Part shown: in pieces, positions 10,047 to 64,000 of the stretch
Layout: each line of letters opens with the position of its first letter
Numbering within the stretch: position 1 is the stretch's first letter
DNA from: Octopus vulgaris
Lineage: Eukaryota
Length of the DNA stretch: 64,000 bases
Assembly (NCBI GenBank): GCA_951406725.2
Contig: OX597820.1
Coordinates: 113,708,001 to 113,772,000 of the forward strand
Direction of reading: 5' to 3'
Notes under the pieces: generated by a model
What the model was told of the DNA's origin: nothing
The model's input: only the letters and a program-made list of their open reading frames with translations
The model's database searches: none
Translations under genes and position numbers: made by a program

Positions 10047-10432
10047 TTTTTAAATAACAAACTGTGTCCCAAGCGTATCCGGGTGTTCTATTTAATCTGA
10101 ACATTTTGATAAAAGGGGTGGGACAATGTTATTGTAACTGTTAATGATGTCGTTATTGCTTTCGTTGTTCTTGTCGTGATTAACTGCCATTGTAAATATT
10201 CATGTTGTTATTGTCAGTGAAGCTATTTCAAGAGATTTCTTTACATATTTCGTTTCTTTATAGGGGAATTTCGAAGGAAGCTCCAAGAAACAAAAAGGAA
10301 ACGACTCGCAGACAATACCGGAGATACAAGTAAACAAAATTTTATCATTTCTTTGAAACAGAATTGGTATTTTCTTTGGACTATGTTGTTATTGTTGTAA
10401 TATATATATAGGCACAGGCGTGGCAATGTGAT

Positions 10433-39225: not shown

Positions 39226-39291
39226 CTACAAGATTGTTCCGTTCATGACGAACCGAGGACTAATTCAGACCTGCCAACTAATATCGCTTGT
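39226..39291 (+). CDS. Internal exon, 66 nt, phase 0/0 (LQDCSVHDEPRTNSDLPTNIAC)
   Basis: ttttttcttcatttccag acceptor; gtaagt donor; frame 0 open. Confidence 0.75.
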
Positions 39292-49931: not shown

Positions 49932-49979
49932 TCAACGAACGATGACGTTCGGGTCGTCCCTTTAAGGCACAAGAAACAG
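49932..49979 (+). CDS. Exon start / 48-nt phase-0 exon (STNDDVRVVPLRHKKQ) just upstream of the giant ORF
   Basis: Strong acceptor ttttttctttctccag at 49931; only frame 0 open; possible donor CAG|gtgacg at 49980, otherwise frame 0 stops at TGA 50091. Confidence 0.65.
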
Positions 49980-50008
49980 GTGACGGCAGAAAATCTTAAA
50001 GGTAAAAT

Positions 50009-53000
50009 ATGGATAGGGGAGAAAGTAGGGCGGCTCCTAGCCGCATTGAGGTCGGTCGAACAGCTAGCATGGAGAATACCAGAGATGATGTGATAAGGTT
50101 ACCGTTTATTGGCACCTTCCCACGAACTAGGAGGGATAAAATAGATGAGAGTAAAATGCCATCTACCCAGTCTCCGACTAGTTATAGACAGAAAATAAGG
50201 AGTGGTATATTTGGAAACAGAACATCACGATTTCTCGAAGAAGTTAAACCTAGCGAACAAAGGGGGACTATATTTGGTACGCTACCGCGGCGCAAAGTCA
50301 CAGAAACTGATACATATCCGGAACACCATAGCTCATTGCCCCGATCACATTCAGACATGAAAACAATCAAGAGTTTGGTTAAAGAAACTAGTTTTCCTGT
50401 GTATGGTGGTGGTCGAAATACCTTTGAAAGAACAATTATAAACACAGATTACCGAAGATCTCCTTTCGCTGTTCGATCGCCTCGTTCCAATAGTAACAGT
50501 CGTGCCAGTATGCATGACTATGCACTCAGTAGCGACGAGGGTTCTTGGTCGGCTGCGGATAGTGGTCATATTGATGATATGGAAAGTTCTGTGCTTAGTA
50601 CGGCATCCTCGCAAAATGCTGGCGATTCCAATACAGACGAACAGAAAAAGAAGAAGAAAAACATCAAAAGTTTAGGTAAAAGAATCAAAAAGGGTCTCTA
50701 TTCCCTTTTTCACAAACATGAAAAACGAGACAGAGACAGCGGTGTAGACGATATCCGACAAACTGATGAAGAAAGCAACAGAACATACTGTAGCACCGAT
50801 TCCGAATTTGATCGCGACAGCGTGAGCAATTTCTCTTACACGTCCAGCGTCAGTCGAAACAATTACGGAAGCAACGCGACTCTGTCACAAACTGGCCCCA
50901 ATGAAGATCGACTCAGTATGGTATCGTCATCAACGTTGTCAAATTATGGAAACGATAGACATAAAGCCGGTATGCGTAGGGTGAGAAGTATGGGTTTCCA
51001 AGATAAGAAAAGTACTTTAGGCCACTTTGCTAATGCTACTCCTTATGATAAACCTGATGGAGATGTTACTTCGGTGTCTGCTCAAAATCAACGGAAGACA
51101 TATTCGCATCAACTAGGCATGTCTCCCGGAAGTTCAACTGATATCGTGGACAGAAACGTGCAAGATCGCACAGCTTCGGCAAACACGAATATACATGAAG
51201 ATAGTAATATGAGACGCAGCTTAACATCGGAGAAAATTAATAAAGACTCGAAGGTGACCAACAGAACATCATTACCATTTATGGGAATTAATTTGCATTC
51301 TAAGAAGAGCCAAGAATTCTCAGTATCCTCGCAGAAAACACATATTGATCAAACAGCTTCTGTGGAAGACCGTACTGTTTTGTTAAACACAGATACACTT
51401 GTTTGTGAAGATAATAGCATGAGACGCAGCTTAACATCAGAGAAAATTAATAAAGACTCGAAGGCGACAAACAGAACATCATTACCATTTATGGGAATTA
51501 ATTTGCATTCTAAGAAGAGTCAAGAATTCTCAACATCGTCGCAAAAAACACATCTTGATCAAACAGCTTCCACTTCGGAAGACGTTTCTGCTTCTAAATC
51601 AAAGAATACCAGTAAAGTCAGCCGTGGGTTGTTTGGTTTCTCCTTTCCCGGCAGATCTAATAAAAGTTCGTCTTCTCAGCTCAAATCCACAACCAAAAAT
51701 AGTAAAGGCAACACAGATGGGGAGGATACATCCTACAAAACTTCACAAGAACGGAAATCTTTGGAAGAGAAACACGGTAGAATGTTTCTTCCAATCTTGT
51801 CTGGACCAAAAGCCAGCAAGAACAGGTCGGTTGTTGTAGTAGCAAGCAGTATAGTTGGCATGTCACCATTAGGACAATTGTCCGACTCCAGTTTTTCAAA
51901 CATCGAAGATCTGAAGACCGACCATTTGAACGATAACATTCCGTCGTATACGGAACCGGACAAAATTAAGGATTCTCAACAGCATAAAACGATTGCAAAC
52001 TTCTTAGAAAGGAAAGATCCTAGAACACAAGATCTCGCCCCTGCAAGGAACAATAACCAAGTCTATCCTTCGGCAAAACAGTCTGGTACTGAAAACTCTG
52101 TAAAGTTGACAACGTCTAAGCGTGAATTTAACAAACATTCGAACTCAGAAAGTCACCAGTTGGGATCCAATCTCTTACGCAACGAAAGAACTGCTTCCCC
52201 GAAATCTGTTTCTATGCACCAACGTCATGTTCCAGAAGCAGCTGCCATTCGTGTTGAAAGCCAGATGAGTAAAGAGAAGACAAACCTCGGTAACGAAAGC
52301 GTCATTCTGTCACAAGTTACCCAAGTCCGAAATGAAACCAAAAACGAAGAGAAAATATCTTGGCACACTAAAGAAACGAGTGGGAAAACAAATGGAGAGG
52401 ATCTTAGCATTAAAGAGGATAAAACAAGAACTGTGTTTCAATATCGTACTGAAACCAATTACGATGATGATGATGACGACGACGATGACAATGAGTTCTT
52501 TGATATCGAAGAACCGACAGATAAGGCACCAACAAGTTCTGATGGAGATAACACAGATTTGGAGTTCTATGATAGCGTAGAACTCGCTCCAGACACCCTT
52601 GGACAAATAAAAGAAGACAGTAGTGGAGAAAATAAAGCCGCCTTTGGTTATTCTTCAACTACACAAATTAAAACTTCTTTTGAGCATTTAAGTCAGGACA
52701 GAATCCATCGCCGATCGGAAGACAACATTTCGAGTCGTTCTGAAATAAGCAAAAGCAATGTTTCACCACATCGATTACATAATGTAGCAAACTCATCTGC
52801 TCCAGCGACTCAAGCTTTTAAGACTCCTTACATAACAGACAATGGTGCCGAATGGATCAAGAGAACAGATTACAGCCAAGTTCTCACAAAAACCGATGAT
52901 GTCGAAGAAATAAAAAGAAGATCCGATATTATTGTGCAAAAATCGAAGAGTATCGACGAAAGCAGTTCTGGCGAAAGGCCAACACTAGATTTACCAAATA

Positions 53001-59000: not shown

Positions 59001-62000
59001 AAACATCTAAATATAAGGAGAAATTGATAAATGAAGATAGCAATGAATCACTGGAAACAACAAGTTGTCAGGCAGTTGTCAAGGAAAAATCGACATGTGA
59101 CAAAGATGGCGCTTTTAATGAGATTGATGATAAAGAATTAAAAACGAATAAAGATAACGATGCCAAATTGACTGTAGAAATTGTCGGAGCTGATAAAGAA
59201 CTAAGTAAAGCGGCAATAATTGAAGGAAAAAAAGAGAAAAAAGAAAAAGAAGAAAAAGCAAAAAGAGAAAAGAAAGAAATGAAAGAAAAAGAGAAACGAG
59301 AAAAGAAAGAAATGAAAGAAAAAGAAAAACAGGAAAAGAAAGAGAAGAAAGAAATGGAGAAAAGAGAAAAGCTAATGAAAAAAGAGAAGGAAAAGCAAGA
59401 AAAGATAGAGAGAAAGTTGAAGGAAAAAATGAAAAAAGAAGGAAAAGTCGAGGCAGAAATAATAGAGGAAAATAGGAAGGAAAATGAAGAAGCGAAGATT
59501 GAAGAGACAGAAATCAGAACAACTGACATTGTAGAAGACAGAAAGAATGAAGGAGTAGAAAATATAGATGGAATAAATCTGGAAAATAGGGAAGAAAAAA
59601 TAGAAAAGATGTCGGTCGTGAAGATGGAAGAATCTAGAAAAACAGAAGAAACTCCTGCTTTTGTCGAAAACAAAGAGAAGACAATTAAGGAAGGGGAATT
59701 GGGGAAAATGGCATCGATCTTTGAGAGAACGAATGAGAAGGACTTTCAGGAAAGACAAACTGAAGAAGTACTGGTCGTGGATGGAAAGGAGGGAAAGGAA
59801 AGGAAAGAAGAGAAAGTTGAGGTACTGTCAGTAGCAGAAAGAAAGAGAGAGAAAGGTAAAATAGAAGAAAAATCTAAAGACGTTTTGGTCGATAAAGGTA
59901 AAGAATTGAAGAAAGTTGAAGTCATCGAAGGAAATGAAGAAAATAAAATGAAAGAAAGAGAAAGTAAAGAGATTTCTGCGGTTGAAAGAAAGAGGGAGAA
60001 AAATGAAAAAGAAGAAAAGTACGAAGAAAAACAGGTCTTTGAAGAAAAGAAGGAAGAACTAAGAAATGAAGAAAAAACCGAAGAAGTGTTAATCGTTCGT
60101 GACGAGAAGAAAGTAGAGCTAGGAGACAAAATGGAAAGGATATCATCGGTCGCTGACGTAAAGGAGAAACAGGCGAATATAATGAAAGAAATGAAGATTG
60201 AAGATGAGGCTGAGGGAGAAGGTGAAGGTAAAGTAGACAGGGAACGGGAGAAAATGAGTGGAAATGAACTTGTAAATTTGGAAAAGGAATCAGAAGTTAT
60301 GGGGAATAAAGAGAGAAATAACAAGGAGGAGATAACTATGGATAAGAGAGAGAAGCATGATCAACAGCAGTTGTCACTTAAGGATCGTAATGAGGAGGAG
60401 GAAGAGGAGGAGTTTTACGACAGTGTGGACATATCACCACGGGAAAGTGCAAACGAACTCCCTGCTGAATTGCGTGAACAGAACGATAATCTCAAGCCTA
60501 ACGAGAGTTCAGTTAAAGCGCAGGATTTAGAATCGGTGACACCTCCTTCTTCAACTGAGTCACTGAAGGAATTGAAAAGTCCCTGTTTAGATAAAGATGG
60601 CGCTCTGAGCAACATTCAAGATAGTATTACTGCTGCTACTGTTGATGTCACTAAAGATATAGACATAGCAAAACAAGTGACGGAAACAGCAAGTAGTTCG
60701 TTACCGGATATTTCCGTGGCGTCATCTACTTCGGAAAATGACGGCTTCAAGGAACAAAGTACTAACAACAATAATATAGACGATAGCGAAACTATGTTAT
60801 CACAGCGTAACAGTAAACAAGACAGTAGTGGTTCAGATATTACTGATATAGCTCTAGCGAAGCAGGAAGAGGCTAAAGATAACGATATCACAAGCATCAG
60901 TAAAGAAGTAAGAGCTACAACAGCAACAACAACAGCAGCAACAAAAACAACAGTCACAACAACAGTAGCAAAAATCGATGGAACAGATCTTCAATCCAAT
61001 GAAACTGAAGAGACTATTGATACCTCAGATTCAACAAATATCTTGAACACTGGACAAAACAAATATGTACCTCCTCAGCGTGAAAGCTGTGAAGATATGT
61101 CGTTAGCAGATACTAGTGCTTCGAGCGGAAATGAGAAAATAAGCTATGAAAAACCAACAGAACATAAGATCTCTACAAACATGGAGGATGATGTTAAGGA
61201 AATTAGTTTTCCTGATAAAGTCGAAAACAACAGAGAAATTGTTTTGTTAGCTTCAGATAGTGAAGCTGAAATGACCGTCCCTGCTGAGAGTAGATCTGAA
61301 GAACAGTTGCAGAGTGCAGTTTGTGAAAACGCAAAACTAAACAATGACGAAATATTAGTACAACCCATTGTTGATGAATCGAAAGAAATTTCTCCCAGTA
61401 TTTCAACGACTGATGACACTAAAGATGAAGTTGTTGCATCGACACAAGCAAACAACGTGTCGTCTGATTTAGTCGAAAAAGGTATACCTCATACGACGAT
61501 TGAAAGTAACGAAGAAGAGGAGAAAACTCAAGCCACACCCACCAAAAGTGGTGTTCTTTATGCTGTTGATGCTCTAAAGAGAATGTTTGGCTTTTCTTCG
61601 AGTGAAGAACTTGAAACATGTGACAAGAATAAAGAATGTATAATCACAAGTGAAGCCAGTGACAACAGGCAGCAATTGGATGGCAAAAAGGACAGTGTGT
61701 GTCACGATGAGGATAATATTTCTGTAGAAGTCGCGAAAGGAATCAATGAACGGGATACACCAGAAAATAAGGATTCCAAAGACTCTGAAGTTGAATATTT
61801 TGACAAGAACGACGGAAGTGATAAAACTGATACATATTTAGAAGAACAAATATCACTTCAGCCAACGTCTATGGAAGATAAGAAAGAAGATATAAACAAA
61901 GCAAATAAAGACATTGAGATCGAATCTTCAAAAGAGGAAACCGGTGAAATGAAACACAGCGAGGATATTGTTAGTTCTGAAGGGAAAGATAGAATTATTC

Positions 62001-64000
62001 CTTGTGATGAAATAATACAGGTGTCGGAAGACGGAGATCATGCCAGCAGCGAAGACACAACAGATCAAGAAAGTAGCTCAGAATCTTCAAAATCGGTAGA
62101 AGAATCAAACAGTGAAATAAGTGAACCAGATTCTGCAGAAAGTTCAGGAATTATTGCTGCAGATTTAGAAGAACTGCCTCCGTTTTCTCCTCAACAAACA
62201 TCAGAGGAGAGAAATCTTGAAGATAGCGACGAAAAAGTCTTCAATGAGGAAGACCAGAAAGACACATCTCATGAAGAGTCAAAAGAATTTATAACCACTG
62301 AAGAGGGGGAAACAGAGCTCGAATTGTCGCCAGTTATTTCTAAGATTGATAACTTAGAAGATGGCTGCATCGAAAACACGGTCGAAATTACAGTCGTTAC
62401 AGATGAAGATTTGTCCGGTGACTTGTTGCCGGAATCAGATATTCTCAAAAATGAAGAAGATGCAAGGGCTCAGTCAGTGGACACTGATGTTGACGCAGAA
62501 TTTATTGTGACATCTTCTGGGTCCTCAGATATTGTAACACCAGAAGAGAATCTTGAATCTAAAATTAAAAGAAAGCCACCAGTTCCACTACCAAGAACAA
62601 CTTCCAAGTCAGAAGCAAAGGATTCTAACAAGGAATCAGAATCATCTGAAGAAATCGAAGATTTAATAGACACGGAATCAATGAATGATTATACGGAAGA
62701 TGGACAAACTTCAGTAGAAAGTAAAAGTAAAAAACCAGTTCCTTTACCAAGAAGTGGTGTTAAAGCGGCTGAAACGGTAAAAGAATCACCTGAAACTGAC
62801 GAATCTATAGAGGAACAGTTCAGAGATCTTTCGAGCAGATTTAACATGTTGCCACCAGAAATGGGTGAGAAACTAAATTTCAAAAAGAAACCTCCAAAGT
62901 TACCGCCAAAATCTAAACTTAGTGGTGAACCAAATAGCACCGAAGAAATTAATTCTTGCGATGAGGAATCTGAAAATAATGATTCTGAAGAAATTAAAGA
63001 TATCAAAAGCAGATTAAGTATGTTGCCAGCAGAAATGGGTTTCAAACTTAATTTTAAGAAGAAAACTCCACCGCCACCACCATCGAAACTTGCAACAAAA
63101 GAAGATAAGGCAGGTGAAATACCTGAAGCTGAAAGTGACGCTCATAATGAGGAAGAGAAGTTAATTGAAAATATAGAGATAAAGGAACAGGACAATAAAA
63201 TCGAACCAATATGTTCTGGCACTGAAGACGCTGATGATGCACAAATGGATCTAAAACGAAGAATGAGTATGCTATCGGCAGAAATGGGAGTTGAAATTAA
63301 TTTGAGGAAGAAAAGCCCTCCAAGTCCAGCACCAAAGGTAAAAAGGAGCGATAATTCAATTAACGCGGAAGAAAATAAATTAATTGAAGGCGACAAAGGC
63401 TCTGAAAGTATTGACGGGTTGGAGCAAGTTTCTGATAACATCAGTAATACGGACGATTCAGACGAACAATCAATGGATTTAAAAAGTCGGCTAAATAAAT
63501 TATCTAACGAGATGGGAACTCAAGTAACTCTGAAGAAATCAGCCCCGGTACCGCCACCTAAATTTACCAAAGACAAAACGAAATTACAATCGGAAGATGA
63601 TGAAGAAGAAATGGATTTGAAGTCACGAATGAATAAACTTTCTTCAGAGATGGGTACTGAAATTAATTTAAAGAAAACCAAAAAACCCCCAGTGCCTTTA
63701 CCAAAGACTGCAGCGGCAAAGATCAATAGTGTGACGGAGGTAGAGTCAGAAGATCCAGAGGAAAGTGGGGAGACCTCTTGTACATTCGTTATTTCTACAA
63801 GTATTAATGACGTAGAATGTGATGAATCAGGTAGTTTTACGTTTGTAATCAACAGTGATGCTACGGAAGATCAAACCGTATTTGCAGTCAGCGATAGTTC
63901 TGGAACAAAATCTGAAACAACTACAGACGGTGACGTAAAAACAGCCGATAGCAGCGCAAATAAAGCAGAAGGTGATGATGAGAACTCTAACAGTTTTACT
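50009..64000 (+). CDS. Giant uninterrupted ORF (at least 13992 nt, 4664 aa, 3' incomplete); acidic/Ser/Lys-rich, predicted disordered scaffold protein
   Basis: ATG at 50009 in strong context (aaaatATGG) with in-frame TAA at 50003. Reads MDRGESRAAPSRIEVG...; the same frame reads KAEGDDENSNSFT at 63962-64000. The ORF track lists no stop-terminated ORF in this frame and my spot translations are open. No SINEs or dinucleotide microsatellites in 14 kb. Confidence 0.93.
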   Translation, partial: MDRGESRAAPSRIEVGRTASMENTRDDVIRLPFIGTFPRTRRDKIDESKMPSTQSPTSYRQKIRSGIFGNRTSRFLEEVKPSEQRGTIFGTLPRRKVTETDTYPEHHSSLPRSHSDMKTIKSLVKETSFPVYGGGRNTFERTIINTDYRRSPFAVRSPRSNSNSRASMHDYALSSDEGSWSAADSGHIDDMESSVLSTASSQNAGDSNTDEQKKKKKNIKSLGKRIKKGLYSLFHKHEKRDRDSGVDDIRQTDEESNRTYCSTDSEFDRDSVSNFSYTSSVSRNNYGSNATLSQTGPNEDRLSMVSSSTLSNYGNDRHKAGMRRVRSMGFQDKKSTLGHFANATPYDKPDGDVTSVSAQNQRKTYSHQLGMSPGSSTDIVDRNVQDRTASANTNIHEDSNMRRSLTSEKINKDSKVTNRTSLPFMGINLHSKKSQEFSVSSQKTHIDQTASVEDRTVLLNTDTLVCEDNSMRRSLTSEKINKDSKATNRTSLPFMGINLHSKKSQEFSTSSQKTHLDQTASTSEDVSASKSKNTSKVSRGLFGFSFPGRSNKSSSSQLKSTTKNSKGNTDGEDTSYKTSQERKSLEEKHGRMFLPILSGPKASKNRSVVVVASSIVGMSPLGQLSDSSFSNIEDLKTDHLNDNIPSYTEPDKIKDSQQHKTIANFLERKDPRTQDLAPARNNNQVYPSAKQSGTENSVKLTTSKREFNKHSNSESHQLGSNLLRNERTASPKSVSMHQRHVPEAAAIRVESQMSKEKTNLGNESVILSQVTQVRNETKNEEKISWHTKETSGKTNGEDLSIKEDKTRTVFQYRTETNYDDDDDDDDDNEFFDIEEPTDKAPTSSDGDNTDLEFYDSVELAPDTLGQIKEDSSGENKAAFGYSSTTQIKTSFEHLSQDRIHRRSEDNISSRSEISKSNVSPHRLHNVANSSAPATQAFKTPYITDNGAEWIKRTDYSQVLTKTDDVEEIKRRSDIIVQKSKSIDESSSGERPTLDLPNRVNQIQRTANQSKAVEELSKFNEISSSSRKTVLSTSPSISAARKTVPSSNISKSLELFQKEITKVGKQPMKIEEKTQISTREEKGVCVSKHGRDSAEEPPPERDKHGFGVKPLNDNNDSLRIFSGADDIANAKYRGIRQTEESIKHISRSNSENIPKKEVEEAARINDVPTLRSDNIKTENQYVGREIDGEHSPGDQSIENVRKDDIEENKSKNIIKSDENQSRRINNDKSKIKVDSETALSSTVRKSDLESTANDTKSIYSSKHPKREKSEKSWKKSPKEKTDSHTAHTDGSAQKEIAKSQLPHPEKTKSTRRENIAQKFDRPEDKNDANLGIGATENREPIQKEKPAKSVSEMTQIFDASGKHLGYVSMEEILRLLSEKLNLPSAVNLDQNTSKDAATSVTSSLHRKMEGEPAEKSFNAKHSSSYESKDKFDNEPHRHTSSKADMPKEKEFRDHSKIDSGVDNKHSKKVSPKHSSESSPESSSESSPEISSEYSTEVRTESSSESSAQASIIDKNEHLTVLSEPTSNDTSAEHSVESSPELSSECSPELSSECSPELSSDSSCAELSGESSSPDVNSIPSSEANSETECDREFSFEHSRVLNEEDQIKDGDTSSDFKLNFVSENKSSDDSKIDIIRIIDNENSVDVPNKEDRTSWSERAPSDSDIAAKNESLDNQVEIDHETNIEIVNRDLSEKQFKDSEETLDTAHKTDKESKLQTKIDAADKRKVNLSPTSTEENLNNMSDLKHHRSETLQARSTVSDDVGVTSKEVFTEFGPKQKPDDVNIEQIVSEFVDSKRKSSEYDLRASNQNSSDGILAKTNDAKNSKSSENIKAIEISRSKSESIECKEEKENKYTEPNKPKVIRKYSKSSKHVDIDLLADQMKEADASNKTDKLEDSDHIVSEQNKVKVDKDEKKEEKSRPPKQNRKSEQKRNKKKNNINKTSRNNEIFSSEDNSAKSSGADIPGKTSSERPKRSAVESSESDGSNSLANSTSKVKRKVDSDNERDYKNNITSDNSLKEQSSDSRSFEGICDRKIKPLPVKDDVKKITGQISPSVNNEQIMNKNSIKDDSTVLNEKESKIMVIKGRDKIKCDITSSSDDSSSSASVDKTKLSRSAAVNVKKRVSFDLKPDISKHPEDTKDNERVLDTKSNYKEKKPKHKSKTKTSKNIESSSAVISETRSKVKSEDSLLTKEKNGEAICTEESNNAPSDIILAESSNKETEAIDGLKFFERHQADNEVTTSVKKEKGTTPFKTEESKKSRSRNMTAGVKISEIQKASYLSSKFGSIHNESKEDKQFNLPHSGSQIKGEMREGLGESNFKQTHDQTNDTGNETKEKELEIENLNVKDQNYAKDITKETKLGTDTNLKENWGISKMQNENFENTSCQKIKQSTVDVSEKELDQVRVYETMSNGTVAEVRDAGKDAVKIDSVKDEESISKEFKENSLSEKEEANFISSSKSAEYTEVKTSKEAVVKDVELDGNEQNGRGFSNREGESCAEADIDKLKVEQKKEDSESEVRIEKKEARIIEDLCKYAVEGITEPLEVLNTQNVENTEMSMEIVYDNVADVSIESHEVVQMNVGESLTDPVNLHCNDPMEDLTTSLSDQLEDIRTTPTEVLENEFKEISICPDDVCCKHSTEMFTDVNNEPEVLQDSVCVLEANTLETPKESITDQNERLAKLTEITDYEVIHVGGGMELSVSIEQADTVCEEKRNISDETKDSEEPLKSPQELYSTESTEPLQYEEVSKLVTAVTRAHFKDSPSYLIDCLSCSDDNKVEYCTDLVDLENIDHEENIIEITVVEHSRVEGIPIEMFDVASIDEIISFVKLENTISEDPIHDSTEPVDIVKEVLANASLEPEHVLCQKITETLLESIKSQQKLDSQSSSVASREDDSKSFTGDKSQVTSEEKSEKNYSPVESQQSQRTSNELEEQSVKDSKELTGKVNDKSMSLCLESEQRGVDSKITTDKTSNNSSYLSPTNVNDFNESEKDKETLKDQISSDIETSKYKEKLINEDSNESLETTSCQAVVKEKSTCDKDGAFNEIDDKELKTNKDNDAKLTVEIVGADKELSKAAIIEGKKEKKEKEEKAKREKKEMKEKEKREKKEMKEKEKQEKKEKKEMEKREKLMKKEKEKQEKIERKLKEKMKKEGKVEAEIIEENRKENEEAKIEETEIRTTDIVEDRKNEGVENIDGINLENREEKIEKMSVVKMEESRKTEETPAFVENKEKTIKEGELGKMASIFERTNEKDFQERQTEEVLVVDGKEGKERKEEKVEVLSVAERKREKGKIEEKSKDVLVDKGKELKKVEVIEGNEENKMKERESKEISAVERKREKNEKEEKYEEKQVFEEKKEELRNEEKTEEVLIVRDEKKVELGDKMERISSVADVKEKQANIMKEMKIEDEAEGEGEGKVDREREKMSGNELVNLEKESEVMGNKERNNKEEITMDKREKHDQQQLSLKDRNEEEEEEEFYDSVDISPRESANELPAELREQNDNLKPNESSVKAQDLESVTPPSSTESLKELKSPCLDKDGALSNIQDSITAATVDVTKDIDIAKQVTETASSSLPDISVASSTSENDGFKEQSTNNNNIDDSETMLSQRNSKQDSSGSDITDIALAKQEEAKDNDITSISKEVRATTATTTAATKTTVTTTVAKIDGTDLQSNETEETIDTSDSTNILNTGQNKYVPPQRESCEDMSLADTSASSGNEKISYEKPTEHKISTNMEDDVKEISFPDKVENNREIVLLASDSEAEMTVPAESRSEEQLQSAVCENAKLNNDEILVQPIVDESKEISPSISTTDDTKDEVVASTQANNVSSDLVEKGIPHTTIESNEEEEKTQATPTKSGVLYAVDALKRMFGFSSSEELETCDKNKECIITSEASDNRQQLDGKKDSVCHDEDNISVEVAKGINERDTPENKDSKDSEVEYFDKNDGSDKTDTYLEEQISLQPTSMEDKKEDINKANKDIEIESSKEETGEMKHSEDIVSSEGKDRIIPCDEIIQVSEDGDHASSEDTTDQESSSESSKSVEESNSEISEPDSAESSGIIAADLEELPPFSPQQTSEERNLEDSDEKVFNEEDQKDTSHEESKEFITTEEGETELELSPVISKIDNLEDGCIENTVEITVVTDEDLSGDLLPESDILKNEEDARAQSVDTDVDAEFIVTSSGSSDIVTPEENLESKIKRKPPVPLPRTTSKSEAKDSNKESESSEEIEDLIDTESMNDYTEDGQTSVESKSKKPVPLPRSGVKAAETVKESPETDESIEEQFRDLSSRFNMLPPEMGEKLNFKKKPPKLPPKSKLSGEPNSTEEINSCDEESENNDSEEIKDIKSRLSMLPAEMGFKLNFKKKTPPPPPSKLATKEDKAGEIPEAESDAHNEEEKLIENIEIKEQDNKIEPICSGTEDADDAQMDLKRRMSMLSAEMGVEINLRKKSPPSPAPKVKRSDNSINAEENKLIEGDKGSESIDGLEQVSDNISNTDDSDEQSMDLKSRLNKLSNEMGTQVTLKKSAPVPPPKFTKDKTKLQSEDDEEEMDLKSRMNKLSSEMGTEINLKKTKKPPVPLPKTAAAKINSVTEVESEDPEESGETSCTFVISTSINDVECDESGSFTFVINSDATEDQTVFAVSDSSGTKSETTTDGDVKTADSSANKAEGDDENSNSFT
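51160..51570 (+). repeat. In-frame 210-nt (70-aa) tandem duplication inside the giant ORF
   Basis: gagacgcagcttaacatc at 51211 and 51421; peptide MRRSLTSEKINKDSKxTNRTSLPFMGINLHSKKSQEFS occurs twice. Confidence 0.92.
62825..63706 (+). repeat. Five protein-level repeats D(L/I)xxR(L/M/F)xxLxxEMGxxxx(L/F)(K/R)K plus a Pro-rich tail
   Basis: Units start at 62825, 62999, 63248, 63476 and 63614. Confidence 0.9.

Follow-up and report, generated by a model that had tools for sequence, protein, structure and literature searches.

What do five copies of a helix-and-polyproline module do in the middle of a giant octopus protein? The question is raised by a stretch of 64,000 bp from the genome of Octopus vulgaris (assembly GCA_951406725.2, contig OX597820.1; G000:C7:113708001-113772000, within a 2.8-Gb genome), referred to below as the window. 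The original prediction described five tandem units separated by acidic spacers and preceded by two stand-alone proline motifs, and proposed WH2-like actin-binding motifs or MIM1-like ligands of MIT domains that form a multivalent interaction platform. In this work we found that the array is very probably a selected multivalent docking site. The platform proposal holds in outline, as a helix plus a proline-rich tail conserved in two other cephalopods. As to the partners, a combination of MIT and SH3 domains is somewhat more likely than actin.

Structure of the array

The five units and the two stand-alone proline motifs were confirmed as originally quoted, in a single reading frame of the + strand. 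The stand-alone motifs are located at 62573–62596 and 62729–62752 and are followed by unit 1 (62825–62911), unit 2 (62999–63088), unit 3 (63248–63337), unit 4 (63476–63562) and unit 5 (63614–63706); the unit coordinates were derived by arithmetic from residue numbers. The module is about 30 residues long, its five copies start 58, 83, 76 and 46 residues apart, and the acidic character of the spacers was borne out by a net charge of -65 across residues 4001–4400.

For comparison we used a set of 11 units, composed of the five from this octopus genome and six from a cuttlefish protein described below. They align without a single insertion or deletion across the first 21 positions, after which the proline-rich tail begins. 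The summary pattern is D-Φ-x-x-R-Φ-x-x-L-(P/S)-x-E-M-G-x-x-Φ-x-Φ-K-K plus a proline-rich tail (Φ, hydrophobic residue), with the column counts D(9)-Φ(11)-x-S(9)-R(10)-F/L/M(11)-x-x-L(10)-P(7)/S(3)-x-E(11)-M(9)-G(11)-x-K/E-Φ(11)-x-F/L/Y(11)-K(10)-K(11). Unit 1 can be read as a helix, a proline break, a short helix, Gly, Φ-x-F-K-K and the proline tail; unit 2 is of the consensus type and near-identical to cuttlefish units 1 and 2, and unit 3 has serine for proline after the helix core. In a leave-one-out comparison each unit scored 32–63 against the 11-unit matrix.

The units stand out from the 6,821-residue product of their exon. The tripeptide EMG occurs in it five times, every time within a unit (300 shuffles: mean 0.43, maximum 3), and the basic-plus-proline motif seven times (300 shuffles: mean 0.01, maximum 1); both patterns were picked after the units had been seen, and it is conservation that provides the independent test. 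AlphaFold, run on a three-sequence alignment, placed a helix of 11–18 residues on the first half of every unit, with a predicted local distance difference test score of about 70–78 except in unit 5, where it was about 60. The helices of units 1 and 2 are followed by a break and by a three-residue helix after the proline, the remainder being coil. The predicted template modelling score was 0.16, and therefore no packing between units is indicated. The predicted anatomy is what ligands that fold upon binding would show when strung along a flexible acidic tether.

Taken as a whole, the unit has no counterpart among the families of Pfam, in the PDB sequence set or among the same-genome examples tested. 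The five-unit profile had no match among 177,635 PDB sequences at E up to 10. A search of this genome for other copies returned the five units themselves and two weak non-self matches (E 4.75 and 9.3), none convincing. The sole Pfam match of unit 2 was the Caskin proline-rich model (E 0.028), which we read as a reflection of composition. The ESM Atlas gave no usable match for the octopus array or for cuttlefish residues 545–635, a result that indicates neither absence nor novelty.

Conservation in coleoid cephalopods

Two relatives were revealed, both uncharacterised and both orthologues of the octopus protein or fragments thereof. LOC106867396 of O. bimaculoides (XP_052825376.1, partial) carries five units and was the single match among 5,636 candidates of 2,564–8,161 residues. 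CAE1306168.1 of a cuttlefish, a record of 1,203 residues, carries six units. It was the sole match among 4,965 candidates of 71–2,000 residues when we searched with a profile of the five units, a search suggested together with the original prediction; the WH2 family of Pfam remained unmatched. When 1.84 billion representatives were searched in full with HMMER, these two proteins were the only matches at E up to 0.001; single diverged copies in other molluscs could escape these searches.

The repeat is thus kept in the orthologues, and it is kept unevenly. Between the two octopuses 149 of 150 unit residues are identical. The spacers share 126 of 143 residues and the remaining sequence 5,050 of 5,511 (P = 6e-5 for the units against the latter). 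In the cuttlefish the six units are separated by diverged spacers, and nothing outside the array region of the protein aligns to the octopus exon. Octopus and cuttlefish lineages separated roughly 270 million years ago. Judged from these alignments of three species, the units are under strong selection.

In literature searches that covered few subscription journals we found no paper mentioning LOC106867396, and nothing that combines cephalopods and octopus with WH2 domains and actin nucleation.

MIT and SH3 domains as candidate partners

We ranked the readings of the units in the following order: MIT plus SH3 binding, non-canonical actin binding, an extended SH3 ligand, SARAH mimicry and canonical WH2 domains. 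The first of them, in which the predicted helix would bind MIT domains and the tail SH3 domains, is proposed tentatively. It was placed first because MIT ligands are the only family whose minimal published requirement is present in the units, and because oligomeric MIT proteins rely on avidity (PMC9477494).

Structures are cited as suggesting that the core LxxRΦxxL suffices for MIT binding, and the MIT domain of USP8 favours an acidic residue before the first hydrophobe (PMC12057046). The core is present in 10 of the 11 units, in two species, and nowhere else in the 6,821-residue exon product (shuffle mean 0.21, maximum 2); D precedes the first hydrophobe in 9 of 11. Internal motifs in disordered regions of non-ESCRT proteins are also reported to bind, including internal variants that bind the USP8 MIT domain (PMC12057046). 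With their acidic residue, LxxRΦxxL core, amphipathic helix and location in a disordered region, the units resemble both the MIM1 motif of ESCRT-III and the internal USP8 ligands of Girdin and melanophilin. On a matrix of the helix half of the units, melanophilin scored 8.9 and CHMP1B 6.5 (MIT ligands quoted in PMC12057046); six same-genome WH2 domains reached at most 3.3, the Hippo SARAH helix 4.5 and the units themselves 11–25. The genome encodes MIT domains, with seven matches split over exons.

The tails were originally labelled class II SH3 ligands. This label stands for three of the seven octopus proline motifs, which fit PxxPx(R/K), and fails for the rest; class I, (K/R)xxPxxP, fits five of the seven, stand-alone motif 1 among them. 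The two stand-alone motifs, and no others of the seven, fit PXXXPR, the consensus of CD2AP (CD2AP/CIN85) (PMC8996326). Because the stand-alone motifs have basic lead-ins without any helix, the KK originally assigned to LKKT may instead serve an SH3 ligand as its basic lead-in.

If this reading is correct, each unit would present two ligands, a short amphipathic helix for an MIT domain and a basic, proline-rich tail for an SH3 domain. The helix would fold on binding, in the groove used by the MIM1 helices of ESCRT-III, and the length of the acidic spacers would allow several units to bind the same oligomeric partner, for example a VPS4-, spastin- or katanin-type hexamer, or USP8. Such an arrangement would gain from avidity, on which oligomeric and multi-MIT assemblies are described as relying (PMC9477494). 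The tail would recruit an SH3 adaptor in addition, and the invariant E-M-G and Φ-x-Φ-K-K would form an extra contact surface absent from MIM1.

Several observations weigh against this proposal. The MIM1 alternative failed in the form in which it was first written, (D/E)xxLxxRLxxL, as did the strict motif [DE]xxLxxRLxxL[KR] (both 0/11), and it stands in the minimal published form only. The USP8 consensus [DE][LIF]x{2,3}R[FYIL]xxL[LV] likewise fits none of the 11 units, or six if its last position is omitted. The strict and full consensus patterns fail because P, S or T follows the last leucine, where MIM1 ligands have K/R or L/V. The core is a generic amphipathic stripe of low specificity: two of six same-genome RPEL helices scored 9.7 and 7.8 on the helix matrix, on par with the MIT ligands, the best of 6,579 background windows of the exon scored 9.2, and the Hippo SARAH helix also holds an LxxRΦxxL core, although none of the RPEL helices or background windows attained the 11–25 of the units. 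The 13 residues that follow the core are at least as conserved and are unlike any MIT ligand scored; on the tail half, nothing tested exceeded 0.9, versus 19–38 for the units. E-M-G and Φ-x-Φ-K-K stay unexplained by MIT and SH3 binding. Further differences from MIM1 are the repetition of the motif, five or six times within the middle part of a single chain, and the conserved E-M-G-x-x-Φ-x-Φ-K-K extension with its proline tail, and in its scanned parts the protein is not an ESCRT-III subunit. The helix could thus be of the MIM1 kind, but MIM1 is not set apart from the other candidates by it.

Possible actin binding outside the known families

A close but less likely rival is that the units occupy the hydrophobic cleft of G-actin in a non-canonical manner, between WH2 and RPEL, with the array gathering or holding actin monomers and SH3 adaptors sitting on the tails. 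The hydrophobes at -10 and -6 from the L/F of (L/F)KK are aligned without gaps, as L36 and I40 of WIP are from L46 (PMC7407642). The units also contain L-x-x-R-Φ-x-x-x-P in the RPEL register, the helix, break and short helix predicted in units 1 and 2 recall the helix-break-helix of RPEL, and the two RPEL helices mentioned above score well on the helix matrix. In addition, the indel-free core of 21 residues is about the size of an actin-cleft footprint, and further cleft-and-ledge actin binders are expected to exist (PMC2583105). Against this, profile comparisons gave only 0.15% with WH2 and 0.3% with RPEL, and six WH2 and six RPEL motifs all scored negatively on the whole-unit matrix (-10 to -24).

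The resemblance to RPEL (PF02755; MRTF, Phactr) extends to L-x-x-(K/R)-Φ-x-x-x-P followed by E-Φ and to the tandem copies. However, the distance from P to E is two residues shorter in the units, their second helix is cut by Gly, and the arginine critical for actin binding (PMC2583105), invariant in RPEL ahead of the proline, is replaced: the position holds L in 10 of 11 units and A in one, versus R in six of six same-genome RPELs. PF02755 had no match in the units. With the defining arginine replaced and no profile match, membership in RPEL was rejected.

A still bolder version, which we consider distinctly unlikely, is that the units represent, next to WH2 and RPEL, a third kind of short ligand for the actin cleft, and that five or six of them in tandem form a coleoid-specific nucleator or monomer store. 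Its design would combine, with the same low probability, an RPEL-like helix lacking the arginine, an invariant E-M-G turn, a WH2-like basic strand and an SH3-binding tail.

As a separate observation, L014 and L018–L023 (G000:C8 and C27) contain an intronless divergent actin, at 76% to conventional actin, and on C27 about a dozen divergent matches of the actin family that lie in a cluster.

A possible extended ligand of one SH3 adaptor

It is also unlikely, if worth weighing, that each unit is one extended ligand of a single SH3 adaptor, with the tail in the canonical site and the helix and strand on an adjoining domain or surface. Between helix and tail the spacing differs by just 0–2 residues across the 11 units, the tail also stands alone twice in the CD2AP/CIN85 form PXXXPR, and the middle segment matches no known family, all of which would suit such a ligand. 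However, the tail is the least conserved part of the unit and the canonical proline spacing is lost in cuttlefish unit 3, and the unit tails end in K, not in the R of PXXXPR.

Resemblance to SARAH helices

Units 3 and 5 had a single Pfam match each, to Mst1_SARAH (PF11629; E 0.085 and 0.073), which raises the possibility that each unit mimics the first half of a Hippo/MST SARAH helix, its partner being SARAH or a similar coiled coil. We regard this as improbable. The match covers 18–22 of 48 profile positions with 13.3–13.5 bits, and it is not significant since it is below the cut-off of 23.1 and was picked from 24,736 families. Comparison with the Hippo SARAH of the same genome revealed 19 ungapped columns (35.8%, pairwise P 3.8e-4) with the same hydrophobic stripe and E-M; the alignment spans L444–I459, residues named in the MST1 interface (PMC4089488). 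The similarity covers under half of the domain, and the invariant Gly of the units would terminate the helix before the midpoint of a SARAH helix. The six cuttlefish units have no SARAH match, the unit profile found nothing in the PDB set, as described above, and with the 11-unit matrix the SARAH score was negative (-3.1) and in a different register. Membership in SARAH was rejected, as under half of this domain of about 48 residues, whose long helix serves antiparallel dimerisation, is covered and the score is far below the cut-off.

Canonical WH2 domains and other rejected candidates

The WH2 domain is defined by a helix with an L-L-x-x-I face (L36, L37 and I40 of WIP) followed by LKK(T/V) (PMC7407642). 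The units do share with WH2 (PF02205) a short helix, Gly and (L/F)KK in tandem copies near proline-rich motifs; the short amphipathic helix before the basic motif is predicted by AlphaFold in all five, and unit 5 contains an exact LKKT. Nevertheless, canonical WH2 identity is very improbable. PF02205 had no match at E up to 10 in the region, in each unit or in the cuttlefish protein, and a genome-wide WH2 search revealed 10 places, none of them at this locus. The LKKT/V signature attributed to the units fits one of 11, namely unit 5, and an aromatic residue takes the place of its L in seven; the cuttlefish copies diverge further from LKKT. LLxxIxxG is found in 0/11 units, which lack the LL pair and have P (7), S (3) or T (1) at the second-leucine position, so that seven of them carry proline in the would-be helix. 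LKKT-like words in the exon are at shuffle expectation (3 versus 2.9). The hhalign value of 0.15%, obtained with five same-genome WH2s, covered four LKK columns only.

Spire and Cordon-bleu are nucleators with tandem WH2 domains. The proposal that the array is a nucleator of this type is not sustained, and the units were rejected as WH2 domains on the lack of a Pfam match, the rarity of LKK(T/V) and the proline in the would-be helix.

That the units are functionless leftovers of internal duplication has next to no probability: tandem repeats do occur elsewhere in the gene (a 34-residue unit was counted 29 times in predicted exon 3), but the idea is contradicted by the conservation pattern, in which the units are far better kept than the spacers and alone align between cuttlefish and the octopus exon.

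Five other short motifs were dropped by eye, against their consensus sequences: PP1 RVxF (the aromatic residue is present in just 7/11 units), dynein LC8 TQT (unit 4 only), the MAPK D-motif (the basic residue is too distant from Φ-x-Φ), the capping-protein CPI motif and the LD/talin-binding motif (wrong charge).

The giant exon and its gene

The array belongs to a giant coding exon on the + strand, which starts with an ATG at 50009, runs to the end of the window at 64000 and continues for 6,471 bases beyond it to a GT donor at L002:8471. From the ATG to the donor the exon comprises about 20.5 kb and 6,821 codons; the reading frame opens at 50006, is stop-free to the window end and contains 6,828 open codons. 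The start of the exon is the same as that of LOC106867396. Its product is low-complexity, charged and serine-rich, and no Pfam domain was found in the scanned parts.

Contigs from four sequencing runs (four studies) cover the array. All four contig sets depart from the genome exactly at L002:8471 and share one loose end, which maps to L003:2369, right after an AG with a pyrimidine tract. By arithmetic the intron is 3,897 bases long, of the GT-AG type, and therefore a spliced form exists. The four runs examined are presumed to be RNA by guess, 0 of the 24 listed runs being on record as RNA, and the array and the splice junction sit on separate contigs, no single contig covering both. Next to none of the sequence words were found in 4 of the 24 listed runs, a figure uninformative on tissue specificity.

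Downstream, the prediction comprises a short exon of 72 bases, another giant exon (7,495 bases) and, in phase 0, four small ones. Read support covers the first junction only, the further exons being predictions; the longest contigs extend 2,451 bases beyond the junction, which exceeds by about 100 bases the length predicted from exon 2 and the unique part of exon 3. The second giant exon (predicted exon 3, L005:4559 to L006:2053) contains the 34-residue tandem repeat, and near L005:7700 it has an apparent frameshift that reflects either an error of the assembly or an allele that is broken. If the predicted downstream exons are used, the protein would exceed 9,000 residues. A search with the end of predicted exon 3 for the identity of the gene gave 0/733 candidates.

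A scan of the upstream 200 kb for exons that could name the gene revealed just short unverified candidates and repeats. Candidate small exons are located in the window at 49932–50001, 39226–39291, 10264–10329 and 1842–1907; three of them are 66 bases long, in phase 0, and resemble the small 3' exons. The candidate at 49932–50001 is out of frame with the giant exon. The downstream neighbour on the - strand (L009:9234-9998 and L010) encodes a G-patch domain (E 1.2e-12) and resembles PINX1.

Other motifs in the protein

Three FFAT-like motifs, each composed of an acidic tract and E-F-[FY]-D-[SI]-x-[ED], are located at 52493–52513, 52562–52582 and 60410–60430, and all are retained in O. bimaculoides; weaker F-x-D-A versions are found in L002 and in two predicted 3' exons. 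Two of the three contain only substitutions described as tolerated (PMC3261905). The protein may bind VAP on the endoplasmic reticulum. Near the N-terminus (about 50645–50710) a lysine run precedes a stretch that is basic and amphipathic, and the two may act as a membrane anchor or as a nuclear signal.

Directly behind the array, a second repeated motif, F/C-T-F-(T/V)-I, follows acidic stretches at 63776–63793, 63833–63850 and 63992–64000 and beyond; the cuttlefish protein has two similar copies in the same place. A further motif, D-x-Φ-K-R-(R/M)-Φ, is present in three copies, at 61568–61588 and in L002 at about 2220–2410; the cuttlefish record contains one similar copy close to its end.

Significance

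As a system, the locus strings short linear motifs in tandem along a giant disordered scaffold. It contributes a new, sharply conserved motif of 30 residues in a lineage-restricted giant protein, small enough for synthetic peptides; it was observed in three species only, and no long-standing open question depends on it. It should also be mentioned that a helix, a glycine and LKK recognised by eye are insufficient to call a WH2 domain.

The wider meaning would depend on the partner. If MIT binding is true, the MIM1-like helices would form an internal array able to bring VPS4-, spastin- or katanin-type hexamers together with no need for an ESCRT-III filament. If actin binding is true, the set of actin-cleft motifs missed by profile searches would widen, and if the units are indeed a third actin-cleft class, coleoid cephalopods would own a nucleator or monomer store of their own, in a protein of more than 9,000 residues.

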